64,000 nt of DNA, taken from positions 1 to 64,000 of the IMG/VR virus record IMGVR_UViG_3300038415_000014; one strand, 5' to 3'. Made by a program: the position numbers and the translations under genes. This document shows positions 1 to 26,628 of this stretch, one piece after another. This DNA is from a virus. How positions within the stretch are numbered: position 1 is the stretch's first letter; each line of letters begins with the position of its first letter. Under the pieces are notes generated by a model. The model was not told the DNA's origin. It saw only the letters and a program-made list of their open reading frames with translations, and searched no databases.

Positions 1-300
1 TAAAGAGGACAACTCGGAAACCGGCATCTTCCCCCTTGGACCCGTGATCACCCCTCGTTCGATGGGCCAAGACTTCGGAGTCGCGAGAAGATTGATATCA
101 CGCCCGCGAACAAAGGCATCCGCGATGGCCAAGGAGACACCCTTTTGCAGGCCGGTTGCATCTTGGATGCTGTCACCAACCCGCTCCGCCTTATGCTGTT
201 TGGTCTCTTTTGGCTTGTACTTGAACGACATGAGGTCTGAAGACACCGCTTGGTATCTGCTGGATACTCTTCGGATAAGGGCTAGATGATCACCGAGCAT
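1..300 (-). CDS. Hypothetical protein (partial, runs off left edge) with N-terminal RVxxRY tag
   Basis: Not in the ORF track. Manual translation from ATG at 300 gives MLGDHLALIRRVSSRYQAVSSDLMSFKYKPKETKQHKAERVGDSIQDATGLQKGVSLAIADAFVRGRD..., open to position 1. It starts 2 nt after the stop of 303..617. Confidence 0.8.
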   Translation of the reverse strand, partial: MLGDHLALIRRVSSRYQAVSSDLMSFKYKPKETKQHKAERVGDSIQDATGLQKGVSLAIADAFVRGRDINLLATPKSWPIERGVITGPRGKMPVSELSSL

Positions 301-302
301 AC

Positions 303-617
303 TCAGATCACGACCCCTAGTTCTCCGAAGTCCTCAATCACTTTCATCAAGGTGTCAGCATCCTGCACATCAGGTCTGATGATCTGCCTCAGATCTCGGT
401 CGTGAACAACGTTACGCTCAATAACCTTGAAGTCGCGAAGCAAGTCATCTACCCCAGCCAAGTCATCAGATACAGCCTGAAGGAGGTTATCCTTCTCACG
501 CCTCCAAGCTATCAACTTCGACTCGATGTCCTCCGGAAGAGACATCGCGACCTTGTACCTGGAGGCTATTCGACTTACGACCAAGGCGTTTTCAAACTCT
601 TGCAGTAGGTTTGTCAT
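303..617 (-). CDS. Hypothetical protein, 104 aa, N-terminal tag (QEFENALVVSRIASRY)
   Basis: Tiles with neighbours (4-nt overlap with 614..856) and carries the shared motif. Confidence 0.8.
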   Translation of the reverse strand: MTNLLQEFENALVVSRIASRYKVAMSLPEDIESKLIAWRREKDNLLQAVSDDLAGVDDLLRDFKVIERNVVHDRDLRQIIRPDVQDADTLMKVIEDFGELGVVI

Positions 618-856
618 CGTTCACTCACAAATCTAGAAGCAATCCTCTGAACCATCAAAGCATTGTAAAATCCGAATATTGGACGAGCTGCCGCTTCCCT
701 TTTAAGGTACTCATCAGTCGGCTTATGACAACTCGGAGATCCAGGGTTCTTGTACTTACAGTAAATACTCCAAGCTGTTGCCCATGCCTGCTCGTCAGAG
801 TAGGTGGGGTTACTGTCTTTCACCTCTCTATAGTACTTATCCACTGGACTGGGCAT
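614..856 (-). CDS. Hypothetical protein, 80 aa, weakly ChaB-like, C-terminal tag (FYNALMVQRIASRF)
   Basis: ATG at 856 (MPSPVDKYY) preferred over the track's GTG at 880. YYREVKDSNPTYSDEQAWATAWSIY resembles the ChaB 'Y...EE.A...AW' pattern (weak). Confidence 0.7.
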   Translation of the reverse strand: MPSPVDKYYREVKDSNPTYSDEQAWATAWSIYCKYKNPGSPSCHKPTDEYLKREAAARPIFGFYNALMVQRIASRFVSER

Positions 857-1352
857 AATTAACTCCTGACCCTGTACCAACTATAAGAGCTTTCTTACGA
901 GCCCTCCACTCCTTCATATACTTACGGAAAGCCACCCGACAAGGTTCACAAGGAGCCTCTTTTCTCTCCCGGTGTCTGGCATAACCAGAATAGGTACCAG
1001 CACCGCATTCTGGGGATGTGGGTAGTCGGTTCTTTACTTTACAATCACGGAGCACGGTTTCAAATTGCTTCAATCTTCGAGGACTTAGCCTAGACTTGAA
1101 TAACTCAAGTAACCTCTCTATATTCCTCCGATCCCCAGATCTCCATCTCCACTTTTTCTTCCAAGTTGGATGGCTCTTAGGTGGGGGAAACGGTCCGTCC
1201 AAACTCCCAAACCCAATAATCTGGTGGAAAGCTCTAACGGGCTCCGGATCGGTCATTGTTATACATGCAAAAGCGTGTTTTCTAGGGTTAAGAAATACAG
1301 ACCCCTCACCCTCAAATAAACCACAAGCCCATGCAATATCCGATTCGGTCAT
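837..1352 (-). mobile_element. Free-standing single-motif LAGLIDADG homing endonuclease with C-terminal Cys/His (Zn-finger-like) extension
   Basis: IAWACGLFEGEGS LAGLIDADG helix, ITMTD strand, and C-terminal CGAGTYSGYARH...PCEPC. Confidence 0.8.
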
Positions 1353-1401
1353 GCTATGGGTGTACTACAAGTAAGTTATTGAGTAGCGCTAACGAGTACA
1401 A

Positions 1402-1479
1402 TCACCTAATGGACTTAGCACGAGCGGCAACCCTTGAGGCAAGTACTGCGTCTTCGAACTCTTGAATAGGATCTCTCAT
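1402..1479 (-). CDS. 25-aa micro-protein MRDPIQEFEDAVLASRVAARAKSIR (tag-only peptide)
   Basis: Manual translation: ATG at 1479 (2 nt after the TAG of 1482..2786), TGA at 1402-1404. Aligns with the N-terminus of 303..617. Confidence 0.65.
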   Translation of the reverse strand: MRDPIQEFEDAVLASRVAARAKSIR

Positions 1480-1481
1480 GG

Positions 1482-2786
1482 CTAACCTCTGTACCTCTTG
1501 ACCACTCGCGAGATGATATCGAGTGAGGCAACCTTCTCAGATCCCTCCCCGTCTTTCTTCTTGACGAACCAGATCTCATCGACTTCGGACAAGTCGACCT
1601 TCACTACATTGCCGTCACCCTCTACAGATCCATCGTCAGAAGGCTCTTCCTCTTCGTCGTCTTCAGAGGGCTCCTCATCAGTAGACCATTCGTCTTCGTC
1701 GTCCTCTTCATCCAAGTAACCTAACGAGCTTTCGAGGGCATCGTCATCGAAGTTATCCAGCTCCTTGGCTACCGAGGCCGTGATGAAGTTTCCAAACACC
1801 TCATCAGTATCTGGGTCACCACCCTCGGACGCTTCCTCGGCGTAACGGAACAACATGACCTGAGCGTTACCAGTTGACGCCAAGTGTGACATCAACCCCT
1901 CAACCCCATGACCAATGTGACCAAGCTCATCTAGAACATGAAGGTGACCCATAGCCCGAGAAACAGCCTTCAAAGCCACGTGACGTGACATTCCTTTGAC
2001 GAGGGCTCCTGCAGCTGCTAGGGGTCCGCTAGATGTGAGGGCGGCTGCCGTGATGCCAATAGCTAGGTGGACTGCAACAGACTTGACAGCCTTCTTCTGC
2101 TCGGAGGTCATCTTATTACCCCGAATAGCAGAAGCTATCCCTTTGCTAGCCGTCTTGTACTCATGAACCTCGTGCTTGACGGTATTAACCACTCCCTTAG
2201 CGAGTTTTTCCGGGGCTTTGACTAAAGCCTCATGGACCCCCATGAGTGTCTTGCGTCGGAACCCTTCATCCTCGATGAATCTCTTGACCTCTTTTGGGGC
2301 CTTTGCTACGAAGTCCTGGGCTTTCTTTCCGAGCCCCTTCAGGCGGTCCGCCCAACTCTTCTTTGGCGGCCCCCCCTCAGCAGGCTTCCCCCCCTTGGGC
2401 TCCTCTCTCTTGCCCTCTGGTGCAGACTCAGCAGGCTTCTCCCCCTTGGGAGCGCCAGACCCCTTCTCTTTTTCTTGGGTCTTGGACATCCACTGATTAA
2501 ACGCCTCGAAGGCCTTGTCTCTAAAGTGGGGGTTCTTGAGGGCAGTGCTGAATGAGACTTGGGGATGACGTTGCCGCGACAGAGGATCGGGATTCGGATT
2601 GGGGACCATCTTCTTCCCGCCATCTTGAGTAGTGTCAAGCCACTCCTTCCAACGAGGCGGGGGTCTCCCAGGGCGTTGCTTCTCTTCAGATTCGTCGCTT
2701 AAAGCAACTTTCTGGAACCGTGTGGCTACACGGAGGCTCAGTACTTGGTCACTGGCCGAGTTCGCGTTGTGGATTCTGTATGACAT
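1482..2786 (-). CDS. Hypothetical protein, 434 aa, tags at both termini, acidic C-terminal tract (possible internal virion protein)
   Basis: LSLRVATRF near the N-terminus and IISRVVKRYRG at the C-terminus. K/E/G/P-rich linker, hydrophobic Ala-rich segment and D/E tract. Confidence 0.85.
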   Translation of the reverse strand: MSYRIHNANSASDQVLSLRVATRFQKVALSDESEEKQRPGRPPPRWKEWLDTTQDGGKKMVPNPNPDPLSRQRHPQVSFSTALKNPHFRDKAFEAFNQWMSKTQEKEKGSGAPKGEKPAESAPEGKREEPKGGKPAEGGPPKKSWADRLKGLGKKAQDFVAKAPKEVKRFIEDEGFRRKTLMGVHEALVKAPEKLAKGVVNTVKHEVHEYKTASKGIASAIRGNKMTSEQKKAVKSVAVHLAIGITAAALTSSGPLAAAGALVKGMSRHVALKAVSRAMGHLHVLDELGHIGHGVEGLMSHLASTGNAQVMLFRYAEEASEGGDPDTDEVFGNFITASVAKELDNFDDDALESSLGYLDEEDDEDEWSTDEEPSEDDEEEEPSDDGSVEGDGNVVKVDLSEVDEIWFVKKKDGEGSEKVASLDIISRVVKRYRG

Positions 2787-2812
2787 CCAGCCATACGCGA
2801 GCTATCAAAGGA

Positions 2813-4066
2813 TCAAGCTGATGCCTGCTCCTCGCGTAGGGTCAGCAACCCAATACCAGTAGTTACAGTTTCTTCAGTGATTGTGATTGCCTCAAGTGAG
2901 GTATTACTAGGTGCGTCGAATGACAGTTGTTTCAAAGCACCTTCCACAATTGACCTCAGCGCCCGCGCTCCGGTTGGGCGCTTCTTGGCTTCCACAGCAA
3001 TTTTTCGCAAAGCTCCCTCAGTGAAGTCCAACCTGAAGTGGTCAATCTCGAATAGACGCTTCACTTGGCGGATGATACTATTCTTGGGTTCTGTTAGAAC
3101 TCGAATCATCTCATCCTCAGTCAATTCCAAGGTACTTGTCAGGATCGGCATACGCCCCAACATCTCTGGGATGATCCCAAATTCAAGAACATCATCCTCA
3201 GTCACTGCCTTATAGGCATCTGTTAGGTTGAACTTCTGTTTGGCCTCAGCACCAAAGCCAATTGATGATAACTTGTTGATACGCCTCTCGACGAGAGGCT
3301 TGATACCATCAAAAGATCCAGCTCCTACAAACAGGATGTTCGTAGTATCAACGAGGTCAATGGCTTGCACCAAACCCCCACCCATCTTGTTGATCCCCCG
3401 CGGGACCCGCGCTCTGGTCCCTTCGAGTAGCTTTAGAAGAGCTTGCTGAACCCCTTCACCGGATACATCACGATAGCCGGCGCGGTCGCGCCCACTACCG
3501 CGAGCGATCTTGTCAATCTCGTCAATGAGACAAATCCCCCATTGAGCCCGATCGACATCACCATCAGCATCGAGTATGAGCCCTTGGATCAAGCTCTCGA
3601 CGTCATCCCCAACATACCCAGCCTGGGTCAGAGTCGTGGCATCCCCAACATGGAAGGGGACCCTCAACATCTTGGCTAACGTGCGGAATATATGGGTCTT
3701 TCCCGTACCAGATGGCCCCAACAACAGGATATTACTCTTGTCTAGTTCGATCTCATCCGGGAAGTCCTCTTTCTTGAGCCCCCTCCTCTTATAGTGGTTG
3801 TAAACCGCCGTAGATATTGCTATCTTGGCTGACTCTTGTCCAATCACATATTCATCGAGATGGGTCTTGATCTCGTGGGGTTTTGGAATTACCTCGGGCT
3901 CTAGCTCTTTGATTACGCCAGCTTCCTTTGCCTCATCAAAGGAGTTGTTGCACCGGTCAGTGCACGCACGACAAATAAAAGGCCCATCATCCGTGGCAGC
4001 TATCAGATGGCCAACGATGTTGGTTGGCTTATCGCAAAAGCTGCAACGGTTAAATTCTGCTGGCAT
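2813..4066 (-). CDS. clpX: ATP-dependent Clp protease ATP-binding subunit ClpX
   Basis: C4 zinc-binding domain (CSFC...ICRAC), Walker [13 protein letters not shown] pore loop, Walker [29 protein letters not shown] loop (SIGFG), [10 protein letters not shown]. Confidence 0.97.
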
Positions 4067-4373
4067 AGAGGCGAGATACTACACCAGGGAGAGCCACTAA
4101 ATCAAGGATGGCTCTCAGATCCACAATAAATCTGTGCGCTACTCTGACTTCGATCCCTTGACCTGTCGGTTGAAAAGCCGCACTCTTGTGCTTGAAGTAC
4201 TCAACCTGGCGGAGGCGCTCCTCGGCCTTCTCCTTGGAAGGGTAACACCCGCCATTCCAATCAGGGTTGTCTGGGCTTCGAACGCAATACTCGCCCTTCT
4301 CTTTGCGGATGACCGCAGTCACCTCGTTCGAGAAGATGTAGCGCTCCATTACCCTGAGTACGATTGGGTCCAT
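4050..4373 (-). CDS. Hypothetical protein, 107 aa, two tags flanking a small Cys-containing domain
   Basis: IVLRVMERY (N-terminal) and IEVRVAHRF (C-terminal part). Core is [12 protein letters not shown]...[23 protein letters not shown]. Confidence 0.75.
4080..4085 (-). promoter_or_regulatory. GGTGTA upstream element (clpX)
   Basis: CTGGTGTAGTATC, 13 nt before the ATG. Confidence 0.5.
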
Positions 4374-4374
4374 A

Positions 4375-4647
4375 CTACTTTTTCTGACTTAGGTATTCGT
4401 CACCTGCTGAAGTCCTATGATAAGTAGGGTTACTGTATGTAACGACCTTACTTTGGCTCTCTGCAAAACCAAGCTCTACAAGCTTCTTAATGGGTGCTAG
4501 ATCAGGATTAACCCTAGCTGGTAGCTCTTTTAGGAGAGAAAGTTGTGCTGGAGTTAGTTTAACCCTTGTGGATCCAGTTAGGTACCTATTGACCAGTTCT
4601 TGGCGGAACAAGTACCGGGCAACAACGTTCTTCGTGATTTGGTCCAT
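4375..4647 (-). CDS. Hypothetical protein, about 90 aa, N-terminal tag, winged-helix-like C-terminus
   Basis: ITKNVVARY tag. LVELGFAE...YHRTSAGDEYL resembles a wHTH wing (weak). Confidence 0.7.
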   Translation of the reverse strand: MDQITKNVVARYLFRQELVNRYLTGSTRVKLTPAQLSLLKELPARVNPDLAPIKKLVELGFAESQSKVVTYSNPTYHRTSAGDEYLSQKK

Positions 4648-4649
4648 GA

Positions 4650-5411
4650 TCAAACCTCAGCGTAAACGATGCAGTCCTCGTTCCACTTGAGTCCTTTACA
4701 GTGGACCTTGCCCGTCTTCTCGATGATGCAAACCCCACCTTCACCAAAGTCATTCGGGCATTCATACCCATGTCGGTTGGACACAATGAGGGTAACCTTG
4801 TTGTCCTCAACGAAGTCCATCCAACTGGTAGCTGGGAACCCACTATCACCCCAGTTAGCACTCAGGGCTACGATGTCCGCGTCCCCAGGCTCGTAGAAGC
4901 TAGTCCACTTGTCGTCCTTCTTATCTCTGACATCGCGACAGATGAGAAGCCCCACCCGCTTGTCCTCGAACTGACACTTGATGATCGGTGGGTTGGACAT
5001 CCCATGAGAGGCCCACAGGTAATCGTTACCGAAGAAGTTGATCTTGCGATAACTAGTGTAGTACCCACTGGGCTCAATATAGAGTTGTGCGTTATAGAGC
5101 TTGTTGGTCCCCGTGTCCAACTCAACGAACCCAGCTACGATGCAGACATCAAGCTGGCGTGACAGCGTACTATACACGTAGAGATCTGACTCAGTGTCAA
5201 TCCCATCCATGTCATCCAGCCAATGAGGGCTCTCAGCAAATGGGCGAGCTTCGTCCTCATCCATGAGTGTGTAGCCCACCGAGGCTAGCTCTGGAAGAAC
5301 AATCAGCTTGGCCCCATTGTGAGCCGCCTCAATGACAAGCTTCGCCAACCGCATGAGGTTGTTGCGCTTGTCCTTTAGTACTGGACAGAACTGGACAGCC
5401 GCGACCTTCAT
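4650..5411 (-). CDS. Carbon-nitrogen hydrolase (nitrilase superfamily)
   Basis: MKVAAVQF start and Glu-Lys-Cys triad in LIVLPEL / YRKINF / GLLICRD, plus IVSNRHG and GGVCII. Confidence 0.93.
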   Translation of the reverse strand: MKVAAVQFCPVLKDKRNNLMRLAKLVIEAAHNGAKLIVLPELASVGYTLMDEDEARPFAESPHWLDDMDGIDTESDLYVYSTLSRQLDVCIVAGFVELDTGTNKLYNAQLYIEPSGYYTSYRKINFFGNDYLWASHGMSNPPIIKCQFEDKRVGLLICRDVRDKKDDKWTSFYEPGDADIVALSANWGDSGFPATSWMDFVEDNKVTLIVSNRHGYECPNDFGEGGVCIIEKTGKVHCKGLKWNEDCIVYAEV

Positions 5412-5995
5412 CAGCCGAAAGCTCCTAACTCAATAGGCTTACTACCATCAAAGGGGATCAGAGTATCCTTGAGCCGAAGTCGGTCAGCACCCCACCTACG
5501 AGTGGCAATCTTCACAGCCCCAGTCTTGAGCTTTGACTCGATGGAGTCCGGGATCTTGACAGAGAACTTAGTCTCAATCCAACGAAGCTCTGAGGCTATT
5601 GTGCTCTGAAGGGTTTCGTTAAACCCAGTCACCATTTTCACCATATGATTGGCTAATTTTGGGTCACTATCAGGGTAGGTCTTGTTGTTAACAGGATGCC
5701 AGTTCGGATGAATGATGATACCTTCTGGAGTTGTGTCAGTTGCTGCTCGATAAGCCCTCTTGGCCGGGTTGAAGGGCAGGATGGCGAACGACCACAGGTT
5801 GATTCCCATTAGTGAGCTGTTGAGGGCAATGTTCTTAGGAGGGTCCCACCAACCATTGCGCTTCGGGAACTTGGTCAGCTCTCTATCCAGCACACTAAAC
5901 ACAGACTCGATGTCTGCCTTCTTGGCGTAGGCATACCGATAAGTTACGTTCTGAGTGATCAGAGCGTCTTCATACTCAATCAACAGATCATCCAT
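5411..5995 (-). CDS. Hypothetical protein, about 194 aa, N-terminal tag (IEYEDALITQNVTYRY)
   Basis: ATG at 5995 follows a GAGGT SD. The N-terminus aligns with 303..617 and 1402..1479. Confidence 0.8.
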   Translation of the reverse strand: MDDLLIEYEDALITQNVTYRYAYAKKADIESVFSVLDRELTKFPKRNGWWDPPKNIALNSSLMGINLWSFAILPFNPAKRAYRAATDTTPEGIIIHPNWHPVNNKTYPDSDPKLANHMVKMVTGFNETLQSTIASELRWIETKFSVKIPDSIESKLKTGAVKIATRRWGADRLRLKDTLIPFDGSKPIELGAFG

Positions 5996-6007
5996 GGCAT
6001 ACCTCAC

Positions 6008-7723
6008 CTAAACAATTGAGAACTTGGCAGACAACTCAGACTTCAAGTCAGCCCACATCGAGTTCTGAACCTCTCCGCGCCGACCCATCATCTTCTTTCG
6101 GATGTTACTCAACTGAGTTGGGGCAAGGCTTCGAATCCTACCTTCCTTCCAACGAGTAAAGATGTCCAAACAGAAGTCTTTTTCTAGGCCGTTTTTGCTG
6201 GAGTACAGCTTGAAGGTCGCTTGGACATCAAAGTCCAAGTCCTGACTCATCTTCTCGAAGACACGCATACCACTAGTGGCCCTGACTAAAGCGGCGACCT
6301 CGTCGACCTCTTCTTCAACCAGGGCTAGGACCCTCTTGTCCTTGACAGATACTAGTCTCCCAAACTCGTCTACCGTGTCCTTGCCAAGCAAATCAGAGTC
6401 TAAGATGGAATCATCCGCGGCTCGTAGCATGGATACCTTGACGCCAGCGATGTCCCGTATGGAATTCAACTTGTAAAGTTCTTCAATTATGGTGGGTACC
6501 CTACGAATGTCCCCAGTAGCTACCTGATTTACGAATGCACAGACCTGGGCTGCCGCATGCTGGTCAGCATCATCTGAGTTGGTCAGGTCTGGGTAAAAGT
6601 CTAGGTTCAGAGCATTGGCCAGAGCCGAGGACCCGTCCTGAATCAATTCAATGAAGTGATCACCCTCAAGTGCATCCCGTACAATGGTGACCTGAGAATC
6701 GAAAAATCCCTTCTGCTTCTCGATACCAGTCTCGATGATGCCCCTTAAGTGACGATAGGGGCTTGCTGTCTCAAGCTCAAAACGATAGTCCGCATTGATC
6801 TGAGCTTTGCCAGCGTCACACTTCTTAACTACGATAGCCAATAGGCTATCGCGCTTCTGGGACGCGGACTCCCAAGAACGAGAGATAACCTCCTTGGCTG
6901 GACCAAATTGAGCTACCTTGTTGAGAAGCCCAAGATACTTGTCCAGAACCTTGAACCTATCCTCCGTCTTGCGCTTGGCCATGATGGCCGACACGACTGC
7001 TGCCAAGCCCTTGCCTGCCACCTGCTGCTTTGCCTGGATGGGCTTTAGAAACTTGATGACCTCGTAAATAGCAATGAGGGCTTGCTGAGAGGCTTGGATG
7101 GTGGCGTTCTTCACCCCAAGGTGGCTACAGATATGGAGCACCTCTTTCAAGGATTCCATGTAGTCCTTCGGGTCGAGGTCTGATTCACCACCAGCAATAC
7201 TGGTAATGATCCTTCTAACTTTGCTCTCAGTCTGGAAGACACCCTCAACACTCTCTAGGGTTTCTCCCTCTGATACCTCGCCGCGCTCTTTCTTCTTGAG
7301 GAGATTGAGCTGGGCTACCAGCTTCTTTCTTAGGATCTCAGGCCCTTCGTAGCCATCAATCTGCAAGTAGTTGTAGATACACTCGCTTCCAACCGTTAAT
7401 GGCTTGCCCGTGATTCGATTCTTGATTGGGAAACGATACTTGATAGGAGTCTTGTCACAAAGCTCGCAGGAACCACCCTCACACTTGTAGGGGAGGCCGT
7501 TGTCCTCCCACTCCATCATCGCTTCTTCGATGTCCGGGGACGAGGAGTTCTTTAGGAGGCGCTCTCTGATCTTAGGCCAGTAGGCGCTACTTCGACCCCT
7601 ACTCCCAATCGCTTGCCCGTTGTCTAAGTCCTTTATTGCATCAAGAACCTCAGACTCATCGTCAAGGCCTTCGACGTCGATAGGCGCCTTCCTTCTTTTG
7701 GAAACTGCATAAATCCAAAACAC
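6008..7723 (-). CDS. Hypothetical protein, about 571 aa, with N-terminal Zn-binding motif (CELC...VGSEC)
   Basis: GTG at 7723 lies 7 nt after AAGGAG. Contains CEGGSCELCDKTPIKYRFPIKNRITGKPLTVGSECIYNY; the remainder looks helical. Confidence 0.8.
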   Translation of the reverse strand: MFWIYAVSKRRKAPIDVEGLDDESEVLDAIKDLDNGQAIGSRGRSSAYWPKIRERLLKNSSSPDIEEAMMEWEDNGLPYKCEGGSCELCDKTPIKYRFPIKNRITGKPLTVGSECIYNYLQIDGYEGPEILRKKLVAQLNLLKKKERGEVSEGETLESVEGVFQTESKVRRIITSIAGGESDLDPKDYMESLKEVLHICSHLGVKNATIQASQQALIAIYEVIKFLKPIQAKQQVAGKGLAAVVSAIMAKRKTEDRFKVLDKYLGLLNKVAQFGPAKEVISRSWESASQKRDSLLAIVVKKCDAGKAQINADYRFELETASPYRHLRGIIETGIEKQKGFFDSQVTIVRDALEGDHFIELIQDGSSALANALNLDFYPDLTNSDDADQHAAAQVCAFVNQVATGDIRRVPTIIEELYKLNSIRDIAGVKVSMLRAADDSILDSDLLGKDTVDEFGRLVSVKDKRVLALVEEEVDEVAALVRATSGMRVFEKMSQDLDFDVQATFKLYSSKNGLEKDFCLDIFTRWKEGRIRSLAPTQLSNIRKKMMGRRGEVQNSMWADLKSELSAKFSIV

Positions 7724-7797
7724 GAGGACTCTCCTTGGACCCGTTACCCCTGACCAGCGAGCGCCAGAGATTACTACCAAGGACAGCCAATAAGAGA

Positions 7798-8151
7798 TTA
7801 CTCAAACTGACGAGCCCAATAGGGATCTTTGTTCCCTCTGAACATCCTCTGTGTTCTTGGCGCAGCTTGCATGAGAGAGATTGGTACCTTGGCGGTCTTA
7901 TTCGGCATTCGAACCAAGAAACCATCTTGATGCTTGCCAACTACGCCACGCCCACTCACGAGTAGTGCATCAAGCAATGGAGAGACATCCTTGTTGATGT
8001 TGAAGCGGCAAAACTCAATAATCCCAAGTTGGAACCTATCGAATACCTCGATATTCGAGAACATGAAGTCAATCAAAGTTGCTACCTCGATGACGTCCTT
8101 GATTAAATAGCGATCAGACTGCCCCTGAGTACCCACTGCGAAGTAGCCCAT
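7798..8151 (-). CDS. Hypothetical protein, about 117 aa
   Basis: ATG at 8151, 2 nt after the TAA of the upstream gene; fills the gap between neighbours. Confidence 0.65.
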   Translation of the reverse strand: MGYFAVGTQGQSDRYLIKDVIEVATLIDFMFSNIEVFDRFQLGIIEFCRFNINKDVSPLLDALLVSGRGVVGKHQDGFLVRMPNKTAKVPISLMQAAPRTQRMFRGNKDPYWARQFE

Positions 8152-9811: not shown

Positions 9812-10822
9812 TTAGGCATGGTTCACATCGATCTTGGGTACGGCGGCTTGCGCGTCTTCTAGGAAGAACTCGAAGGACTTGGGCTCAGGGAGCACAAATG
9901 AGGTCTTCAAGTACTTGCTCTCATCGAAGGACCCGAGTAGCTCATCAGCTTCCCGTTTGGTCATCCCGAACTCGGTTTGCATCTGTTCTACAGATATACC
10001 CGAGGTTATACCATTTGACCCCATCCCAATAGGTGTGATCCCAGTGGTTGTTTTGGTTAACATCTTGCAGAGAACCAGCATCTCTTGCCGGCTGAAGGTG
10101 TGAGCCTTGAAGTCGTAGTCAGCCCAAGCCGAGAACAAGGCTGGCCACCCGCGCTCCAAGATACCGGCGATGACATTGGCGAAGACCCGGATCTCCCACT
10201 GGGCATGGGGGTCGCACCGGAGCGACAAGAAGTGCATCAGGTTGTGTCCGTCGATCTTCCAGCGCCACTGGGTGTACGTCGACAACGGAAGGTCGATTCT
10301 AGCCAGCTCGCGCGCCACATCCTCGGCAATGAGCCACTCATAGGTCTCTTGAACCCGGTCCCGTACATCGCCCCAACGATGTACAGCCTGGCTATGAAGT
10401 GCTAGATCTTCACTTTCAGATCTCCCCTGCTTGTTGCTCTGGGATTGCTTGGAGAAGTGCTCAGCTTCAGGGGTGTGGAAGAGCATCGGAAGGATGCTGT
10501 ATCGGCCACTCACCTCATTGATTGAGGCCGTTCGGTGGCGGACCCACTGGCGCGCGACGAAGATCGGCATAGAACAGTGGAAGTGGAACTCCACGAACTC
10601 GAATGGGCTCGTATGCTTGTGGCGCCGGAGGTACCGAATCAGCCCAGTGTCATTACTGGTAGCCTTGGTCCCATGCCCGTAGCTGGTCCGCGCGCAGGTG
10701 GGGACAGTAGGATCGGTCCCCATGTAGTCCATCAAGGCAACGAACCCGTGGTCAAGAACTGGGAAGTAATCGCCCAAAAGGGCTTCAGCGGTCTCGGAAG
10801 TAGGGCGTTTAGTCTCTGCCAC
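9812..10822 (-). CDS. thyX: Flavin-dependent thymidylate synthase ThyX
   Basis: RHKHTSPFEF, ThyX motif RHR-x7-S (RHRTASINEVS), ARELARIDLP, DPHAQWEIR. GTG at 10822 after AAGGA is preferred over the track start at 10915. Confidence 0.96.
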   Translation of the reverse strand: MAETKRPTSETAEALLGDYFPVLDHGFVALMDYMGTDPTVPTCARTSYGHGTKATSNDTGLIRYLRRHKHTSPFEFVEFHFHCSMPIFVARQWVRHRTASINEVSGRYSILPMLFHTPEAEHFSKQSQSNKQGRSESEDLALHSQAVHRWGDVRDRVQETYEWLIAEDVARELARIDLPLSTYTQWRWKIDGHNLMHFLSLRCDPHAQWEIRVFANVIAGILERGWPALFSAWADYDFKAHTFSRQEMLVLCKMLTKTTTGITPIGMGSNGITSGISVEQMQTEFGMTKREADELLGSFDESKYLKTSFVLPEPKSFEFFLEDAQAAVPKIDVNHA

Positions 10823-11462
10823 GGAGTATCCTTTCGTATCTGGTTGGGATCTTTGACCTATCATAGTCTTCCATGTCGATAGGTCGTATCTCGCAGGATA
10901 CACCGGGAACTCCATATCTTGACTTGATCAATTCTACTCGATAGCTTTGGTCCAGCTTTGAGATCCCTAGTGCAATGCTAGACCTCTGGTGTGTTGAATC
11001 AGAAGAAGTCAGGCTGGGACCCATCCTCCTTGACTGATAAGTACCCACTACAGCAGTTTGACCGAAGTCCAGTCTGAACATTCCCTCTAACTGGCGCGCT
11101 TGAGCCGCTACCTCATCGCTCCTGAAGTCTGGGGTCATATGAGTTAGAGAGTCTAAGACCAACAAGTCTGTCTTGTCCCGCTTACCAGGGTGCAATAAGT
11201 TCGCAACACGCCTTGTCACATCTTCCAAAGAGGTTACTTCTCGTACAGGGTAATCAGATCTGAACTCCCCCTCTGTGGTGAAGTACACGACCTTGAGCCC
11301 TTTCTTGTGAGCCCTTTCACAGCACTTTCTCAAGACCTGAGTCTTTCCACTACCAGGAGCCCCAGAGAGCAAAGTTAATGCCCCACGTGGGAACCCCCTA
11401 CAATCATGGCCCGAGGCTAGCATACTGTCTAGAACTGGAAACCCAGTGGTTACGAAGGACAT
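10809..11462 (-). CDS. Short RecA/RadA/KaiC-fold ATPase, C-terminal PTRYERIL motif
   Basis: TTGFPVLDSML..GFPRGALTLLSGAPGSGKT, VVYFTTEG, LLVLDSLT, RVELIKSR. Confidence 0.85.
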   Translation of the reverse strand: MSFVTTGFPVLDSMLASGHDCRGFPRGALTLLSGAPGSGKTQVLRKCCERAHKKGLKVVYFTTEGEFRSDYPVREVTSLEDVTRRVANLLHPGKRDKTDLLVLDSLTHMTPDFRSDEVAAQARQLEGMFRLDFGQTAVVGTYQSRRMGPSLTSSDSTHQRSSIALGISKLDQSYRVELIKSRYGVPGVSCEIRPIDMEDYDRSKIPTRYERILRGRD

Positions 11463-16034: not shown

Positions 16035-16658
16035 CTACTTTGATACACCGGAACCAGATCCGAACCGGACCGTAGCGCCGGCAGTGACAATTACTTCAGA
16101 AGGCGCACTTTGCTCTGGCGCACCCCAGGAGTCAACATTTTTCTTGGTGCTACGAACGGGTACTGATTGCTTCTGCGCCCCAGGTAAGTACTGCTCGATT
16201 ACCACAGGAGTGTTCATTAGCAAAGTATCTCTGGAAATGGAAGTGGTAGATTCATCCGGTTGTGGGTACACCGGAAGTGGCTCGATAATCGCTGGGCTCT
16301 CTTCTGTTACGGCTTTTTGAACCGGTTCAGGAATGAAAGCCATCGGGGGCTCGGGTTCCCCTTCCGTACCCCAACCATGAACGATTAAAGACTCCTGAAC
16401 CGGAGAGAACTCCTGTCCTGCAATACTCTCGAACCGAGGGTCGCCCGGATCCATCCGAGGTACCTTCAAAAAGAGTCGGTCTTCCCATGAGGTAACCCGC
16501 TGGTCAAACTTGGTTTTTCCATGACTACTCCGTGTGCACTCCGGCTGAAGGCATCGAGTGCAGAAAGACTCCGAGAACAGCTCGAAAGTCAGTGGCTCTT
16601 TGACCTTTCCAGCAACTTGTGAGTGACACTCTTTGAGGAAGTCTCGTCGCGTAGACAT
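16035..16658 (-). CDS. Hypothetical protein, 207 aa, Cys-containing N-domain and Pro/Glu-rich tail
   Basis: TAATG coupling with polA; FCTRCLQPECTRS motif. Confidence 0.8.
   Translation of the reverse strand: MSTRRDFLKECHSQVAGKVKEPLTFELFSESFCTRCLQPECTRSSHGKTKFDQRVTSWEDRLFLKVPRMDPGDPRFESIAGQEFSPVQESLIVHGWGTEGEPEPPMAFIPEPVQKAVTEESPAIIEPLPVYPQPDESTTSISRDTLLMNTPVVIEQYLPGAQKQSVPVRSTKKNVDSWGAPEQSAPSEVIVTAGATVRFGSGSGVSK
16044..16049 (-). promoter_or_regulatory. GGTGTA upstream element (DUF2997-like)
   Basis: CCGGTGTATCAA, upstream of a separate AGGAG SD, 21 nt before the ATG. Confidence 0.5.
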
Positions 16659-19651
16659 TAGGTGGCCCTCTGAACATACCCCAGGTTGTACAGGTCCATG
16701 TCTCTCTCAAACCACCATTGGTTTACTGTCACCTTCATCTCCGGACCAATGAGAACCTCTCCAGACCCACTATCCACTAGCTGCAAGACTGGACCCGTTG
16801 GGTCAAAGCACTTCTGGCAAAGGCCGGTCACTTCTCTGACTGTTCTTCTGGTCAGGTTGTAACTCATCAGGTAGACCGTAAGCACCTCGGTTTTACCATT
16901 GATTTTCCCATTAGTTGGTGGGACCGACGCGCGAGGGGGTTGGGTACTAGGCTGAGTTTCTTTTTTAGGCTCGACCTTCTGAGTTTCTTTCTGAGGTGGT
17001 TCCTTCTGAGGCTCGACCTTCGGGGGTGGTGGCGGGTCGCCCGCAGGCGGTGACCCCTTGGGTTCATCAGGCTTAGTCCCAGCCTTCATGTAGTCTGGTA
17101 CCAAAATATCCTTAAGCCAAGGGGGTGGCGCTTGATAATACCGGTCACCGACTTTGATGTCAGTTTCCTTGGGCTTCTTACCTGACTCTGGAACATACCC
17201 CTTCATGATCTTGTGGTAGTCATACTTCGGGTCCCAATGAGCATCAATCAGAGGCTCGACCTCTAGCTGTACCTTCCACTTCATCATCCTACCGGGATCA
17301 GTCATAATGCGCTCGATAGCGGGCATGACCTCCATGAGCATCTCGTGTTTGACCTCGAACACAATTTCATCGTGCACGGTCAACATAAAGCGAGCCTTAG
17401 GATCATCTCCTTGAATCCACCCTTGCTTGGAGAATTCCTTGTAGAGCATCACCATGGCCATCTTCATGATGTCTGCGCCACTACCTTGGATCGGGTAGTT
17501 CAGAGAGTAACGCTCGCACGCGGCTACTACAGCCTTGTCAGGTGAGTCTACATCAGGGACGGCCATCCACCGACCAAAGGCTGTGTAGACACCCTTGTGC
17601 TTCCTGACTGAAGCCTTCTGCTTCTTGACCCACTCCGAGAAGACAGGCATAGCCTTGTCGAAGTTGGCTTTCCTTCGAGCGGCTTCCTGCTGGCTACACT
17701 TGGTGGCTCTCATGATCGCCATGGTACCGCCGCCATACACGAGGGAGAAGTTAGCCATCTTGCCCTGTTGGCGCTGCTGCTTCGTGATCTCATTGCCAAA
17801 GAAGGCCTTGGCAGTAATCGTGTGCAGGTCCCCAGAGCCTTCGTTGAACTCCTTGATCCATACCGGTTCACCAGAGAGGTTGGTGACGATGCGAAGCTCC
17901 TCGCCAGCGAAGTCCACCTTGACCATCGTGTAACCCGGTCGAGCTACGAAGGCCTTGCGCAAAGCCGTCGCTACCTTTGGCTTCTTGTCGTCGTAAGTAG
18001 ACGGTATCCCATGGATTGGTATCCCACCATACCCGTGAGCCGGATCCCCCGACGGGGCAGTGAAGCGCCCAGTAGGAGCCCCAGTCTGCTTGAACTGATA
18101 TCGAAGTTCGGAATTAGCATCACAGTTGTTGAGCATCCCTGTTAGGTAGGTTCCGATGACCTTCTCTACCTGACGGAACTTCACAATGGTGATGAGGATT
18201 GGGTTGATGTCTGGGTTGTTCTCGACCAACTTCTCCAGGGTATCAGCGTCGGTCTTGTATTGATTCCTGAGCTCGTTCTTGGTCTTTTCTGGCTTGGGGG
18301 TGATGTTGAGCCCCGCGGGACTAGCAAACAAGAAGTCACTGAGCTGCTGGGTTGATTGAGGATCAAAGTTGTTGAACCCTTTCTGCACAGCTAGAGCGAC
18401 AATCTGAGTGCGGTATTCATCTGCTTCTTTTCTAGCATCATCGAATAGCTTTCGAACGTAGTCATGATCGATCTTGATACGATTGCGCTCCATCCATCGA
18501 AGCACCTGCACGACTTGTTTCTCGATTCGATAGACCCCGGCATACTTTGGGTCCTTGATGGCTGATTGAATGGCTGGGTCCTCACAATGCAAATAGGTGC
18601 AAATAGCATCCGAGCATGCATAGTACCGAGCCTCTTCGGGGTCCAAGGAGGCAAAGTCGATAGGACGACCTCGCATGAACAACTCCTTCAGCTCAATCAT
18701 CTCATAGGCAATTGGAACCCCCGTTGGTGATTCCCTCACGAGCTCATGTTTTGCGTTCTTGGGGTCACGTTCGATGACCCCAAGAACAAGGTTCCCATCC
18801 CGCTTGACGGTTAGCTTCTTGTAGCTCTTGTCCTTGAGCCCAAGGTTCTTGTCATTCGTGTAGATGCAGTAGTAAACAAGCATTCCATCTTCGAATGACT
18901 CAGGATGCCAAAAGTCGATCCCGGTGACTGGTAGCAGGAATTCCTGGTCAAACTTGGCATGCCAGAAGAATAGCTTGACCTTGGCCTTTTCAATCAAAGG
19001 GCTCGCCAGAGGGTCGATAACCATCCCCTCTGGCTTGATGACTGGTTGGGCCGCTTTACACAGCCTCTTGATGATCTTACCAACAGCGATGGGGTCTACA
19101 TTCTTCGAAACTTCATTGTGACGTACTGGGACATAGTATCCAGTATGCCCATCTGGGCTCAAGCAGTAGCCTACGATCTTGTGGACGGTTTGGGCTACCC
19201 TAGCCGGGCGGGGGCCATCCCAGTACTCCTCAATTGGCCCCCGAATGGTACTAGGATCTCTCATGTAGATTCGGTTATCTAGCCCTTGGGTTTCCAAGTC
19301 TAGGGAGCACATGCCAGTCTTGAACGCTTGCTTGACAACCTCTTCGAGTTCCTCAACTGTCTTGATGATCACGAATTCGTGATAGTGCATCCACGCTTTG
19401 AAGATGTCCGTGAGTTGGGGCTCGACGGTAGTCCCCATGCTATCCATGATCGCCTCAGGATCTAGGTACTCCTCCCCATCGTCATTCTCATCAAGGTTGA
19501 ACCTTGTCGTAGGTGCTGCAGGAGATTCGCTCGGTAACTCAGGGGGGGTATCGTCCTCTTCCTCGACGACGGGCTTGGACACAGGCTTAGGTGGTCCTTC
19601 TAGATCAGATAGGATCTCACTTAGATCAAGGTCAGTATCAATGTCTGGCAT
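16658..19651 (-). CDS. polA: Family A DNA polymerase (3'-5' exonuclease plus polymerase; no 5' nuclease domain)
   Basis: ExoI SLDLETQG, ExoII HAKFDQEFL, ExoIII YACSDA; motif A VKVDFAGEELRI, motif B RQQGKMANFSLVYG, motif C LTVHDEIVFE. ATG at 19651 preferred. Confidence 0.97.
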   Translation of the reverse strand: MPDIDTDLDLSEILSDLEGPPKPVSKPVVEEEDDTPPELPSESPAAPTTRFNLDENDDGEEYLDPEAIMDSMGTTVEPQLTDIFKAWMHYHEFVIIKTVEELEEVVKQAFKTGMCSLDLETQGLDNRIYMRDPSTIRGPIEEYWDGPRPARVAQTVHKIVGYCLSPDGHTGYYVPVRHNEVSKNVDPIAVGKIIKRLCKAAQPVIKPEGMVIDPLASPLIEKAKVKLFFWHAKFDQEFLLPVTGIDFWHPESFEDGMLVYYCIYTNDKNLGLKDKSYKKLTVKRDGNLVLGVIERDPKNAKHELVRESPTGVPIAYEMIELKELFMRGRPIDFASLDPEEARYYACSDAICTYLHCEDPAIQSAIKDPKYAGVYRIEKQVVQVLRWMERNRIKIDHDYVRKLFDDARKEADEYRTQIVALAVQKGFNNFDPQSTQQLSDFLFASPAGLNITPKPEKTKNELRNQYKTDADTLEKLVENNPDINPILITIVKFRQVEKVIGTYLTGMLNNCDANSELRYQFKQTGAPTGRFTAPSGDPAHGYGGIPIHGIPSTYDDKKPKVATALRKAFVARPGYTMVKVDFAGEELRIVTNLSGEPVWIKEFNEGSGDLHTITAKAFFGNEITKQQRQQGKMANFSLVYGGGTMAIMRATKCSQQEAARRKANFDKAMPVFSEWVKKQKASVRKHKGVYTAFGRWMAVPDVDSPDKAVVAACERYSLNYPIQGSGADIMKMAMVMLYKEFSKQGWIQGDDPKARFMLTVHDEIVFEVKHEMLMEVMPAIERIMTDPGRMMKWKVQLEVEPLIDAHWDPKYDYHKIMKGYVPESGKKPKETDIKVGDRYYQAPPPWLKDILVPDYMKAGTKPDEPKGSPPAGDPPPPPKVEPQKEPPQKETQKVEPKKETQPSTQPPRASVPPTNGKINGKTEVLTVYLMSYNLTRRTVREVTGLCQKCFDPTGPVLQLVDSGSGEVLIGPEMKVTVNQWWFERDMDLYNLGYVQRAT

Positions 19652-19653
19652 AA

Positions 19654-20085
19654 CTACTCCGCCTCTGGGTGAACGACCACAACTAGATACACCCCCTCGC
19701 GCCACATCCGGACGAGCAACCCAGCAAGTCTCCGTGCTTCGAGATCTTCAATACCCGCTGGTTCAAAGCAGATAGGCATCTTCTTTACCAAGGGTAAACA
19801 CTCCTTCTTACGATAGAAGGGACAGATAACTCGCTTGTCGCAAAGGGAGTTAGGTAGCTTTCGCAGAGCCCCCTCAGGAGGGAGTCCCAACGACTTGATG
19901 AAGGGTCGCGTGAGCCCCTTGAGTGCATGATCCATCATCTCCTGGGTAACTACTGTCAACAATGAGGTGATGGTCTCCCCTTGCAGGGGCTTCCATTCCT
20001 CTTCCCACTCACTCCCGTACTGGTAAATCAAGTAAAGTTCTAGGTCACCCATCTCGTGGGTCTTGAGCTTAAGCTGGCGTGACAC
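19654..20085 (-). CDS. Hypothetical protein, 143 aa, Cys cluster
   Basis: CDKRVICPFYRKKEC...MPICF; tiles between the Zn-finger gene and polA. Confidence 0.75.
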   Translation of the reverse strand: MSRQLKLKTHEMGDLELYLIYQYGSEWEEEWKPLQGETITSLLTVVTQEMMDHALKGLTRPFIKSLGLPPEGALRKLPNSLCDKRVICPFYRKKECLPLVKKMPICFEPAGIEDLEARRLAGLLVRMWREGVYLVVVVHPEAE

Positions 20086-24866: not shown

Positions 24867-25772
24867 TTAGGTGGCCCGAGCAAATAGTGACTTCTGGCCA
24901 GTCCACTTGGCTTGAAGCTTGGCTCGATAGTCACCCCACTTCTTGCCAAATTCAAGATGAAGCTTGAGAAGTTCATCGACTGACTTAGCCATGGTGTTCA
25001 CACACAAGTCTATGTCGACACAGTCTTCAAAACCATCGGGGGCCAGGTCTAGTCCAATAGCATTGTGACGGATCAGATCCGTTAGGTCATGAGATTGCTT
25101 GGAAAACTCCCTCTGAGCTTTAGCATAGGTCTCATACTCGGGAGTTGTGCTGAAGCCACTGGAGAATGGCTCAGCACTGATCCATCCACCGTCACGCACA
25201 TGCGACTCTATTTTGAGGCAATCATCTGCTACTGCCTCACGCCAGTCATCACAGGCGGAACGAACTGCCTCCAGGGAGGGTGCAACTACCCTCGTTATGT
25301 ACTGCTGTACTAGCGCCGGCTTAAGAATCGCCGTTCCAGCCCCTGAGGATCTAAGAGCCTTCGCACCCAAACTGACTAGGACTTTTCCAGCCTTACCCAT
25401 CGGAGTTGACAACTCTTTGACCGCGCAATAGGCTCGCAGAGGGTGACCCTTCTGAGCAACCTTAACCAAGTTGCTGAGCTGAGTATGAAACCCCTTGATC
25501 CCCTTGATGTCCACACCAAAGGCTTCTAGTTTCCCTGGGATCTCAGCAACCGTAGCGGCAAAGTCACTCAAGGCAGACCGAGCCAAAGATGTGCTCCTTG
25601 TGGAAACCGTCTTCAAGCCACCTACGAGGGCATCCGCCGACTTGATTGACTGAATAGCCTCAGGGTATTCGTTTACGTCTGCTTTCCTGGAATGAGAAGC
25701 AAAACGAACTTTGACACGAGCGGCTATGAGCTGATCAAGAGGGCTCAGGTTTGGATCCATAGCTACATGCAA
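24867..25772 (-). CDS. Hypothetical protein, about 300 aa, N-terminal tag (IAARVKVRF)
   Basis: Long ORF whose tag is followed by RKA. Confidence 0.8.
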   Translation of the reverse strand: MHVAMDPNLSPLDQLIAARVKVRFASHSRKADVNEYPEAIQSIKSADALVGGLKTVSTRSTSLARSALSDFAATVAEIPGKLEAFGVDIKGIKGFHTQLSNLVKVAQKGHPLRAYCAVKELSTPMGKAGKVLVSLGAKALRSSGAGTAILKPALVQQYITRVVAPSLEAVRSACDDWREAVADDCLKIESHVRDGGWISAEPFSSGFSTTPEYETYAKAQREFSKQSHDLTDLIRHNAIGLDLAPDGFEDCVDIDLCVNTMAKSVDELLKLHLEFGKKWGDYRAKLQAKWTGQKSLFARAT

Positions 25773-26614: not shown

Positions 26615-26628
26615 GAATGAGGCAGAAG

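Follow-up and report, generated by a model that had tools for sequence, protein, structure and literature searches.

What is the short peptide that recurs near the ends of otherwise dissimilar small proteins in the first 6 kb of a viral contig, and which protein reads it? The contig is IMG/VR record IMGVR_UViG_3300038415_000014 (183,533 bp, referred to here as G000), and its first 64 kb, the window of this study, have the same numbering as the contig itself. The first-pass annotation of the window had described the peptide as a portable terminal tag that sends its carriers to one machine, most likely the prohead or the unfoldase ClpX encoded beside it. We found the tag to be genuine: a portable docking label, acting at the protein level, in a clade of huge phages. 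We also compared the candidates for its reader.

The record is ~38% complete by CheckV, has no terminal overlap and carries nearly all of its genes on the minus strand. A nucleotide search with positions 1-6000 gave no match among deposited phages, and an alignment of the terminase large subunit TerL yielded 65 related loci. Three relatives, G001 (286 kb), G002 (407 kb, complete) and G003 (363 kb), were taken whole. The clade comprises phages of 230-530 kb, with a GC content of 51-65%. In addition, 27 large records were scanned with a profile of the tag at E<=0.02, which undercounts the tags; between 0 and 10 copies per record were detected. The four remotest records (TerL identity of 45-48%; none of them complete) had no tags, no ClpX and no homolog of the 135-residue carrier described below.

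All 10 strict copies listed previously were recovered in a six-frame pattern scan, on the minus strand and within long open reading frames (ORFs), and the near copy LASRVAARA was confirmed at 1417-1443, within a 25-codon ORF. Each copy lies at most 41 residues from the N-terminus or at most 25 from the C-terminus of its ORF, in agreement with the terminal placement that had been claimed. Over the whole contig, 18 real copies were identified in 16 ORFs. Strict matches at 17724 and 42842 were dismissed as chance, their ORFs being only 18 and 26 codons long, and an apparent hit at contig position 179157 was discarded as a translated tRNA-Arg gene.

Chance origin, which had been judged unlikely, was examined with 2000 shuffles of each protein in a crude gene set, where 13 strict matches were observed against 0.64 expected and a maximum of 4. 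In frames of at least 80 codons, 15 strict matches stood against 1.0 expected by shuffling. A position-weight scan of the whole contig was bimodal, with the real copies at 23-31 bits and the best unrelated site at 14.8 bits; a weak copy at contig position 175425 scored 14.7 bits, and a degenerate copy was seen on the plus-strand ORF 183014-183325. The terminal zone holds 24% of the residues, giving a probability of 0.236^19, or ~1e-12, for the placement (n=19 still counts the hit at 179157). Background frequency at random positions had been set beforehand as the outcome that would refute the tag, and both the count and the terminal enrichment were above chance.

Two of the earlier statements held only in part. 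Placement at the termini alone is true of this contig, but in relatives the tag is sometimes internal, at the joint of two domains. Likewise, enzymes were said to be free of the tag, which is the case within the window but not genome-wide, where a type IB topoisomerase (TopoIB) and a HAD phosphatase are tagged. The motif had not been recognised as a described one; the literature search likewise found no paper on this tag, and the tag profile gave only chance matches to PDB sequences, with E of 0.17 or worse.

The tag is conserved as a peptide. Its invariant arginine, at position 8, is encoded by CGC (three copies), AGA (four), AGG (three), CGA (one), CGT (five) and CGG (three), and since all six arginine codons serve this residue, selection acts on the peptide rather than on the DNA. 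The valine position uses five codons, and third bases vary just as much at the remaining positions. A DNA or RNA motif was ruled out by the many synonymous codons at every conserved residue, and the varied codons, together with the copies at both gene ends, exclude a promoter, a ribosome-binding site or an RNA element.

The core consists of nine residues, [ILVM]-x-x-[RNK]-[VI]-[A/V/S]-x-R-[YFW], with hydrophobic or small residues at positions 1, 2, 5, 6 and 9, basic ones at 4 and 8, and any residue at 3 and 7. Judging from this spacing, the conserved residues would lie on one face of a helix; thus far the proposed helix stands, although a hydrophobic-moment test did not separate helix from strand. 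About half of the copies add an acidic turn upstream (QEFENAL, QEFEDAV, IEYEDAL or FQDAL), so that the full peptide has nine to sixteen residues. Many N-terminal copies start with M-D-P, and the tag is set back from the chain end by 2-17 variable residues. The tag is probably disordered when free and helical when bound.

The claim that the tag is portable among proteins without other similarity was upheld by comparisons within families. The best conserved case is a 135-residue protein encoded upstream of the terminase genes, which carries the tag in all 22 clade orthologues recovered; in its alignment (22-23 orthologues) the R, V, A and R of the tag are nearly invariant and the flanks vary. 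The TopoIB orthologues in G001 and G002 keep the tag, which was also found at the N-terminus of 75 of 120 database homologues of TopoIB, several of them with a C-terminal copy as well. The 301-residue protein of the window has an orthologue in G002 (58% identical) that keeps the tag together with its 91-residue neighbour, the homologue of the 434-residue protein in G003 is the tagged gene that follows ClpX there, and the G003 orthologue of domain B (Table 1) begins with the tag too.

Gain and loss within families were also seen. In the HAD phosphatase the tag is appended beyond the end of the HAD domain; nearly all homologues of at least 40% identity end in the tag, whereas those at 35-40% stop without it. 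The G001 orthologue (10229-10921) of ORF 5411-6007 has no tag. Other arrangements include a tag at both ends of the 434- and 107-residue proteins, and tandem copies 10, 12 or 14 residues apart in proteins of G001 and G006. In an AlphaFold model of TopoIB (52 sequences; mean predicted local distance difference test score, pLDDT, of 83), residues 1-15 scored below 50; the tag, at residues 9-17, falls mostly in this low-scoring stretch, which is nonetheless among the best conserved columns. A conserved end with such a predicted lack of structure is what one expects of a linear motif that takes up its fold upon binding a partner. The AF2 model of the 135-residue family (pLDDT 50) was uninformative except for a helix predicted over the tag, and an ESM Atlas search with this protein returned a best score of 0.79, which is at chance level. 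As the tag is kept in orthologues, gained or lost within families, placed at domain joints, repeated in tandem and disordered, we regard it as a short docking motif.

Three tandem paralogues of ~175 residues with the motif W-x-GGQGV-x-W lie just downstream of TopoIB, at contig ~126.0-127.3 kb. The last ~80 residues of TopoIB are encoded by a small gene of their own beside the terminase in G003 (228829-229080) and in the distant clade without tags, so the TopoIB of this contig is a fusion with a conserved terminase-neighbour domain.

The second cluster of tags on the contig is in an array of 26 tRNA genes (172001-183533, all on the minus strand) with small protein genes interspersed, five of which are tagged, including the HAD phosphatase, an 'RNA repair' enzyme of the HAD_SAK_1 family. 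A circular contig that would unite both tag clusters was ruled out by the ends without overlap and by the low completeness. Clear copies numbered 9-12 in each of G001-G003, and tagged proteins of the relatives include two J-domain proteins, a LigT/Acb1-like 2H phosphoesterase and a second topoisomerase. The tag is carried by roughly 3% of the proteins of the clade phages, that is ~one in thirty.

Tags could also bind each other. Domain A followed by the tag (614-880) and the tag followed by domain B (1-300) are encoded here by two genes that enclose a third tagged gene, whereas G002 has a single A-tag-B chain and G001 a chain in which A and the tag are joined to another domain. Perhaps, then, the helices pair through the acidic extension and the arginine face, the tagged proteins dimerise or assemble, and the split A and B halves reassemble, with no separate reader. 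The extension, present in about half of the copies, could pair antiparallel with the two arginines, and the need for mutual compatibility would explain the strong conservation over all carriers. On the other hand, many copies lie 3-5 residues from the initial methionine and lack the acidic extension, a tandem spacing of 10, 12 or 14 residues makes folding back impossible, and nine residues are short for a stable helix pair. We consider self-association very improbable.

The tag is under protein-level selection, portable and flexible, and it is clustered around ClpX. Of the 18 copies in G000, 10 are found no more than 3 kb from the ClpX gene; the 107-residue gene with two tags overlaps the start of ClpX with its stop by 17 nt, and the 434-residue gene follows directly downstream. 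Tagged genes were found on both sides of ClpX in G000-G003, their families differing between genomes, and the position upstream of ClpX is taken by non-homologous tagged genes in G001 and G002. The gene after ClpX in G001 combines two tandem N-terminal tags with a J domain. Tags were detected ~1.5 kb or less from ClpX in 11-12 of 20 further clade genomes and, in a separate scan, within 6 kb in 10 of 11 clade loci. Over 20 genomes, 10 of 76 profile-level tags were within 3 kb of ClpX against 1.5 expected, a comparison that gives no clean probability because the genomes are related.

ClpX also accompanies the tag at the level of genomes. All seven complete genomes of the 27-record set encode it, as does the complete G002, and no complete tag-bearing genome without ClpX was found. 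G008 and G029 carry tags but yielded no ClpX; both are fragments, 49% complete. The sizeable records that lack both tags and ClpX are all distant or incomplete.

The phage ClpX itself aligns with Escherichia coli ClpX over its full length (E = 1e-103) and has the C4 zinc finger (zf-C4_ClpX, E = 7.5e-9), Walker A and B, the GYVG pore loop and the IGF loop for docking on ClpP; the RKH loop is replaced. The four zinc-finger cysteines are invariant in 20 clade ClpX proteins, and GYVG, Walker A/B and an IGF-type loop occur in every clade ClpX checked, with the RKH region not kept. Judged by these motifs, the enzyme looks active and able to dock on ClpP. Neither ClpP nor Hsp70 is encoded in G000-G003.

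In G002 (280061-282388), and also in G015 and G023, the ClpX frame extends to 775-795 codons, with ~300 extra residues near Walker A, which looks like an intein or another in-frame mobile insertion. In an unrelated group of AT-rich phages (loci L007 and L008), clpP lies beside a clpX that is split into two frames; a LAGLIDADG-like gene is located upstream of the second clpX half in L007, and the halves are ~220 nt apart in L008.

On this evidence we tentatively name the phage ClpX as the most likely reader among the candidates. The ClpX N-domain is known to dock adaptors and some substrates (PMC5415555). A simple degron engaged by the ClpX pore is unlikely, because the tag is set back 2-17 residues from the chain end and can also be internal and tandem; a docking or tethering motif fits better. 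An adaptor-like role would suit the bivalent tags as well as the J-domain proteins that carry a tag. No natural chain with both the zinc finger and the tag was found, and the second zinc-finger protein of G003 is untagged.

A possible course of events can be outlined. Recombination would have placed the tag at the N-terminus, the C-terminus or a domain joint of clade proteins, where it may be bound by the N-terminal zinc-finger domain of the phage ClpX. The carrier, or whatever the carrier holds, would then be tethered to the unfoldase in the way that the tail of the adaptor SspB acts, and a nearby free chain end would enter the ClpX pore. The outcome could be timed degradation with the ClpP of the host or remodelling without ClpP, as the IGF-type loop is kept in phages that have no ClpP of their own. 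The role of multivalent adaptor would fall to carriers of double or tandem tags and to the J-domain proteins with a tag. In its full form, this is an addressing system private to the clade, in which a rewired ClpX reads a helical label, with host ClpP or alone, and the phage sets the time at which its own proteins are removed, remodelled or delivered, without recourse to the degron code of the host; we hold this scheme as a whole to be possible, though doubtful.

Several observations weigh against ClpX as the reader. Its zinc-finger domain is only 24-39% identical across the clade, whereas the tag is almost unchanged, and the zinc finger of G000 lacks the RPRNEVK stretch that the clade conserves. 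G007, a complete genome of 435 kb with ClpX, shows no tag enrichment: 7 strict matches were counted in all frames, where ~3.8 are expected for the first 300 kb alone, and only weakened copies are left in its TopoIB, its 135-residue protein and its ClpX neighbour. At the invariant arginine, the 135-residue orthologue of G007 has leucine and the ClpX neighbour glutamate. The tag was found in none of 69 other ClpX-encoding phage loci and is thus not a general feature of ClpX; a search of the same loci for shared terminal 8-mers near ClpX found none, with a method too blunt even for this tag. The most conserved carriers, the 135-residue protein and TopoIB, adjoin the terminase and not ClpX, and in LR745208.1 (485 kb, no ClpX and no tag enrichment) TopoIB starts with a degenerate NVAAKY. 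The clustering itself could reflect an island of accessory genes where ClpX happens to sit.

Two attempts to identify a reader by comparison were rejected. Co-variation of the zinc finger with the tag gave no consistent switch, the TopoIB of G007 keeping RVAARY, and a search for a dedicated reader by gene loss gave nothing convincing: of 77 families common to G001-G003, five are missing in G007, namely the A-tag family itself, NAD ligase and three small unknowns.

Cases such as G007, in which no phage gene tracks the tag perfectly, would be explained if the reader were a host protein, namely the host Hsp70 (DnaK), the host ClpX or another conserved hub. The phages encode J-domain proteins and no Hsp70, which implies that they engage the DnaK of the host. 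Furthermore, DnaK generally binds a hydrophobic core between basic residues, a pattern that the tag resembles. The conservation of R, V, R and Y/F is, however, far tighter than in chaperone-binding patterns, and the 51-65% GC span of the clade indicates probably different hosts, yet the tag barely changes. A host reader is thus quite improbable.

Near the terminase, enrichment was also observed: 18 of the 76 profile-level tags were within 3 kb of TerL against 1.6 expected, which is a further point against ClpX and one in favour of a capsid or packaging address. Here the tag would dock cargo to the prohead interior, the scaffold, the portal or the packaging motor, a function that the capsid-targeting sequence has in T4; tagged proteins could be taken up into the head and possibly expelled along with the DNA, and ClpX could be the loader. 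The most widely conserved carriers are the 135-residue gene upstream of TerS/TerL and the TopoIB gene just downstream of TerL, and carriers skew basic. Basic proteins made up 9 of 13 tagged proteins in G000, compared with 34% overall (p = 0.016), and 5 of 6 in G002, compared with 39%. The QEFxxA form of the extension recalls the T4 sequence MKTYQEFIAE. ClpX and ClpP were detected by mass spectrometry in particles of phage G (PMC12484599), and the ClpX of jumbo phages was proposed to aid virion assembly (PMC7824862).

Such an address is nevertheless unlikely. The C-terminal, internal and tandem copies set the tag apart from the T4 sequence, which is always N-terminal and is cleaved; a HAD phosphatase and J-domain proteins would be odd cargo for a head; most tagged genes are in accessory or tRNA regions and beside ClpX, not in the head module; and the enrichment near TerL comes from only two orthologous genes. 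The conserved terminase-adjacent carriers and the basic skew keep this explanation alive.

TopoIB among the carriers also suggests a hub of DNA replication or repair. Clamp-binding, PIP and APIM motifs occur at the ends of many unrelated DNA enzymes, and their distribution is matched by the terminal position of the tag, its ~10-20 carriers per genome, its double copies and its presence on TopoIB. A divergent protein resembling the beta clamp could be the reader: the ~418-residue core ORF at contig 143055-144311 (minus strand) has a sub-threshold match to the N-terminal domain of the beta sliding clamp, and the orthologous ORFs of ~420 residues in G000-G002 gave weak DNA_pol3_beta matches (E = 3e-4 to 8e-3, below the Pfam cut-off). 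By these matches, the ORF may be a divergent phage clamp. One tagged gene, for the 301-residue protein, directly follows a helicase gene in the replication module, and a second TopoIB and a LigT/2H phosphoesterase are among the tagged proteins of the relatives. The core of the tag, R-[VI]-[AV]-x-R, is similar to APIM, [KR]-[FYW]-[LIVA]-[LIVA]-[KR].

Against a DNA hub, the DNA polymerase (16658-19705), the DnaB-like helicase, the SNF2-type helicase and the NAD ligase are all untagged, the tag departs from QL[SD]LF, the clamp-like ORF scores below the threshold and no tags cluster near its gene. The J-domain proteins and the many tiny ORFs of the tRNA array do not fit either, making this reader rather unlikely. 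The probability left over by these four alternatives and by ClpX as the reader goes to some other partner.

The tagged genes of the window, with ClpX and the two tagged enzymes outside it, are listed in Table 1. The window carriers, including the 104-residue ORF, are small proteins without a Pfam or PHROG family.

Table 1. Tag copies of the window, the phage ClpX and two tagged enzymes elsewhere on the contig (contig positions)
Feature	Position	Strand	Gene and placement
LIRRVSSRY	253..279	-	N-terminal in ORF 1..300 (domain 'B'; C end runs off the contig)
VVSRIASRY with acidic extension QEFENAL	555..581	-	N-terminal in 104-residue ORF 303..617
MVQRIASRF	629..655	-	Four residues from the C end of ORF 614..856/880 (domain 'A')
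LASRVAARA (near copy)	1417..1443	-	25-codon ORF 1402..1479; 23.2 bits; Ala replaces Tyr/Phe
LSLRVATRF / IISRVVKRY	2715-2741 / 1491-1517	-	Both ends of 434-residue gene 1482..2786; C-terminal tag two residues before the stop
ClpX, 417 residues	2813..4066	-	Pfam zf-C4_ClpX, AAA_2
IVLRVMERY / IEVRVAHRF	4338-4364 / 4128-4154	-	107-residue gene 4050..4373; at residue 4 and 25 residues from the C end
ITKNVVARY	4612..4638	-	N-terminal in 90-92-residue ORF 4375..4647/4653
ITQNVTYRY with extension IEYEDAL	5933..5959	-	N-terminal in ORF 5411..5995/6007
IAARVKVRF	25701..25727	-	N-terminal in 301-residue ORF 24867..25772
TopoIB, tagged	127325-128374
HAD phosphatase, HAD_SAK_1 family	178271-178825		C-terminal tag (copy at contig 178286)

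A free-standing homing-endonuclease-like gene was identified at 837-1352 (minus strand), with a weak LAGLIDADG_3 match and the PHROG annotation 'HNH endonuclease'. Its C-terminal part is WhiB-like and rich in cysteine, and the gene overlaps the start of the A-tag gene. It sits between this gene and the mini-ORF 1402-1479, which is little more than a tag, and by its location beside the endonuclease gene the near copy may be a remnant. A group I intron around 837-1352 was rejected, as no Rfam match was found in positions 1-8000. At 4650-5411 (minus strand) there is an untagged carbon-nitrogen-hydrolase-like gene (PHROG 'NAD synthetase', N-terminal part), kept between tagged genes in the ClpX module of G000, G002 and G003. 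In the replication module, a 592-residue RCC1-repeat protein (regulator of chromosome condensation) is encoded at 26617-28395, among the few genes of the plus strand.

Cells and viruses connect many proteins to a single machine through portable address peptides, among them degrons, capsid-targeting sequences and clamp-binding motifs. An as yet undescribed label, carried by about one in thirty proteins clade-wide, points to an unrecognised hub in the biology of huge phages, and the binder of the peptide would define the common ground of dozens of genes of unknown function. If the reader were the phage ClpX, the system would be a virus-encoded, orthogonal code for proteolysis or remodelling and a tag-reader pair for synthetic biology; if it were the prohead, the tag would be a cargo-loading signal for very large capsids.

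Among known systems, the capsid-targeting sequence of T4 (IPI-III and Alt) is likewise a portable N-terminal peptide of about ten residues on unrelated, mostly basic proteins, and the extended tag resembles it in its QEF-type turn. The T4 sequence is, however, strictly N-terminal and is cut by the prohead protease, whereas the tag is also C-terminal (629, 1491 and contig 178286), internal (G001 and G002) or tandem. The clamp-binding motifs (QL[SD]LF, the PIP box and APIM) are comparable in having four to nine residues at the extreme ends of proteins, in serving one hub, in being disordered until bound and sometimes duplicated, and in that TopoIB is among the carriers of the tag; they differ in that the consensus QL[SD]LF/QLxLxL is absent here and that the replicative polymerase, the ligase and the helicases of this phage are untagged.

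The ClpX degron classes (ssrA-type C-motif 1, MuA-type C-motif 2 and N-motifs 1-3) are also short signals near either end. Those degrons occupy the chain terminus itself, where the pore engages them, while the tag is set back by 2-17 residues and can be internal, and it is not known to match any published ClpX degron consensus.

A further comparison is with peptides that link adaptors or substrates to the zinc-binding N-domain of ClpX, such as the XB tail of SspB, which ends in C-terminal ...ALRVVK in E. coli. L-R-V-V-K-COOH differs from R-V-x-x-R-Y/F with a hydrophobic residue three positions upstream, mostly at the N-terminus; XB is found on one adaptor, whereas the tag is on ~16 proteins per genome, enzymes included, with a putative binding to ClpX. 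Park and colleagues reportedly found in 2007 that XB binds as a strand, while the conserved positions of the tag fit a helix. Both are short peptides on flexible ends, and the bivalent presentation of SspB has its counterpart in the two tags of the 434- and 107-residue proteins and in the tandem tags of G001 and G006. RVVK itself is contained in one copy of the tag only, IISRVVKRY, and a ClpX with an intact C4 zinc finger is encoded in the same genome, next door to the tagged genes.

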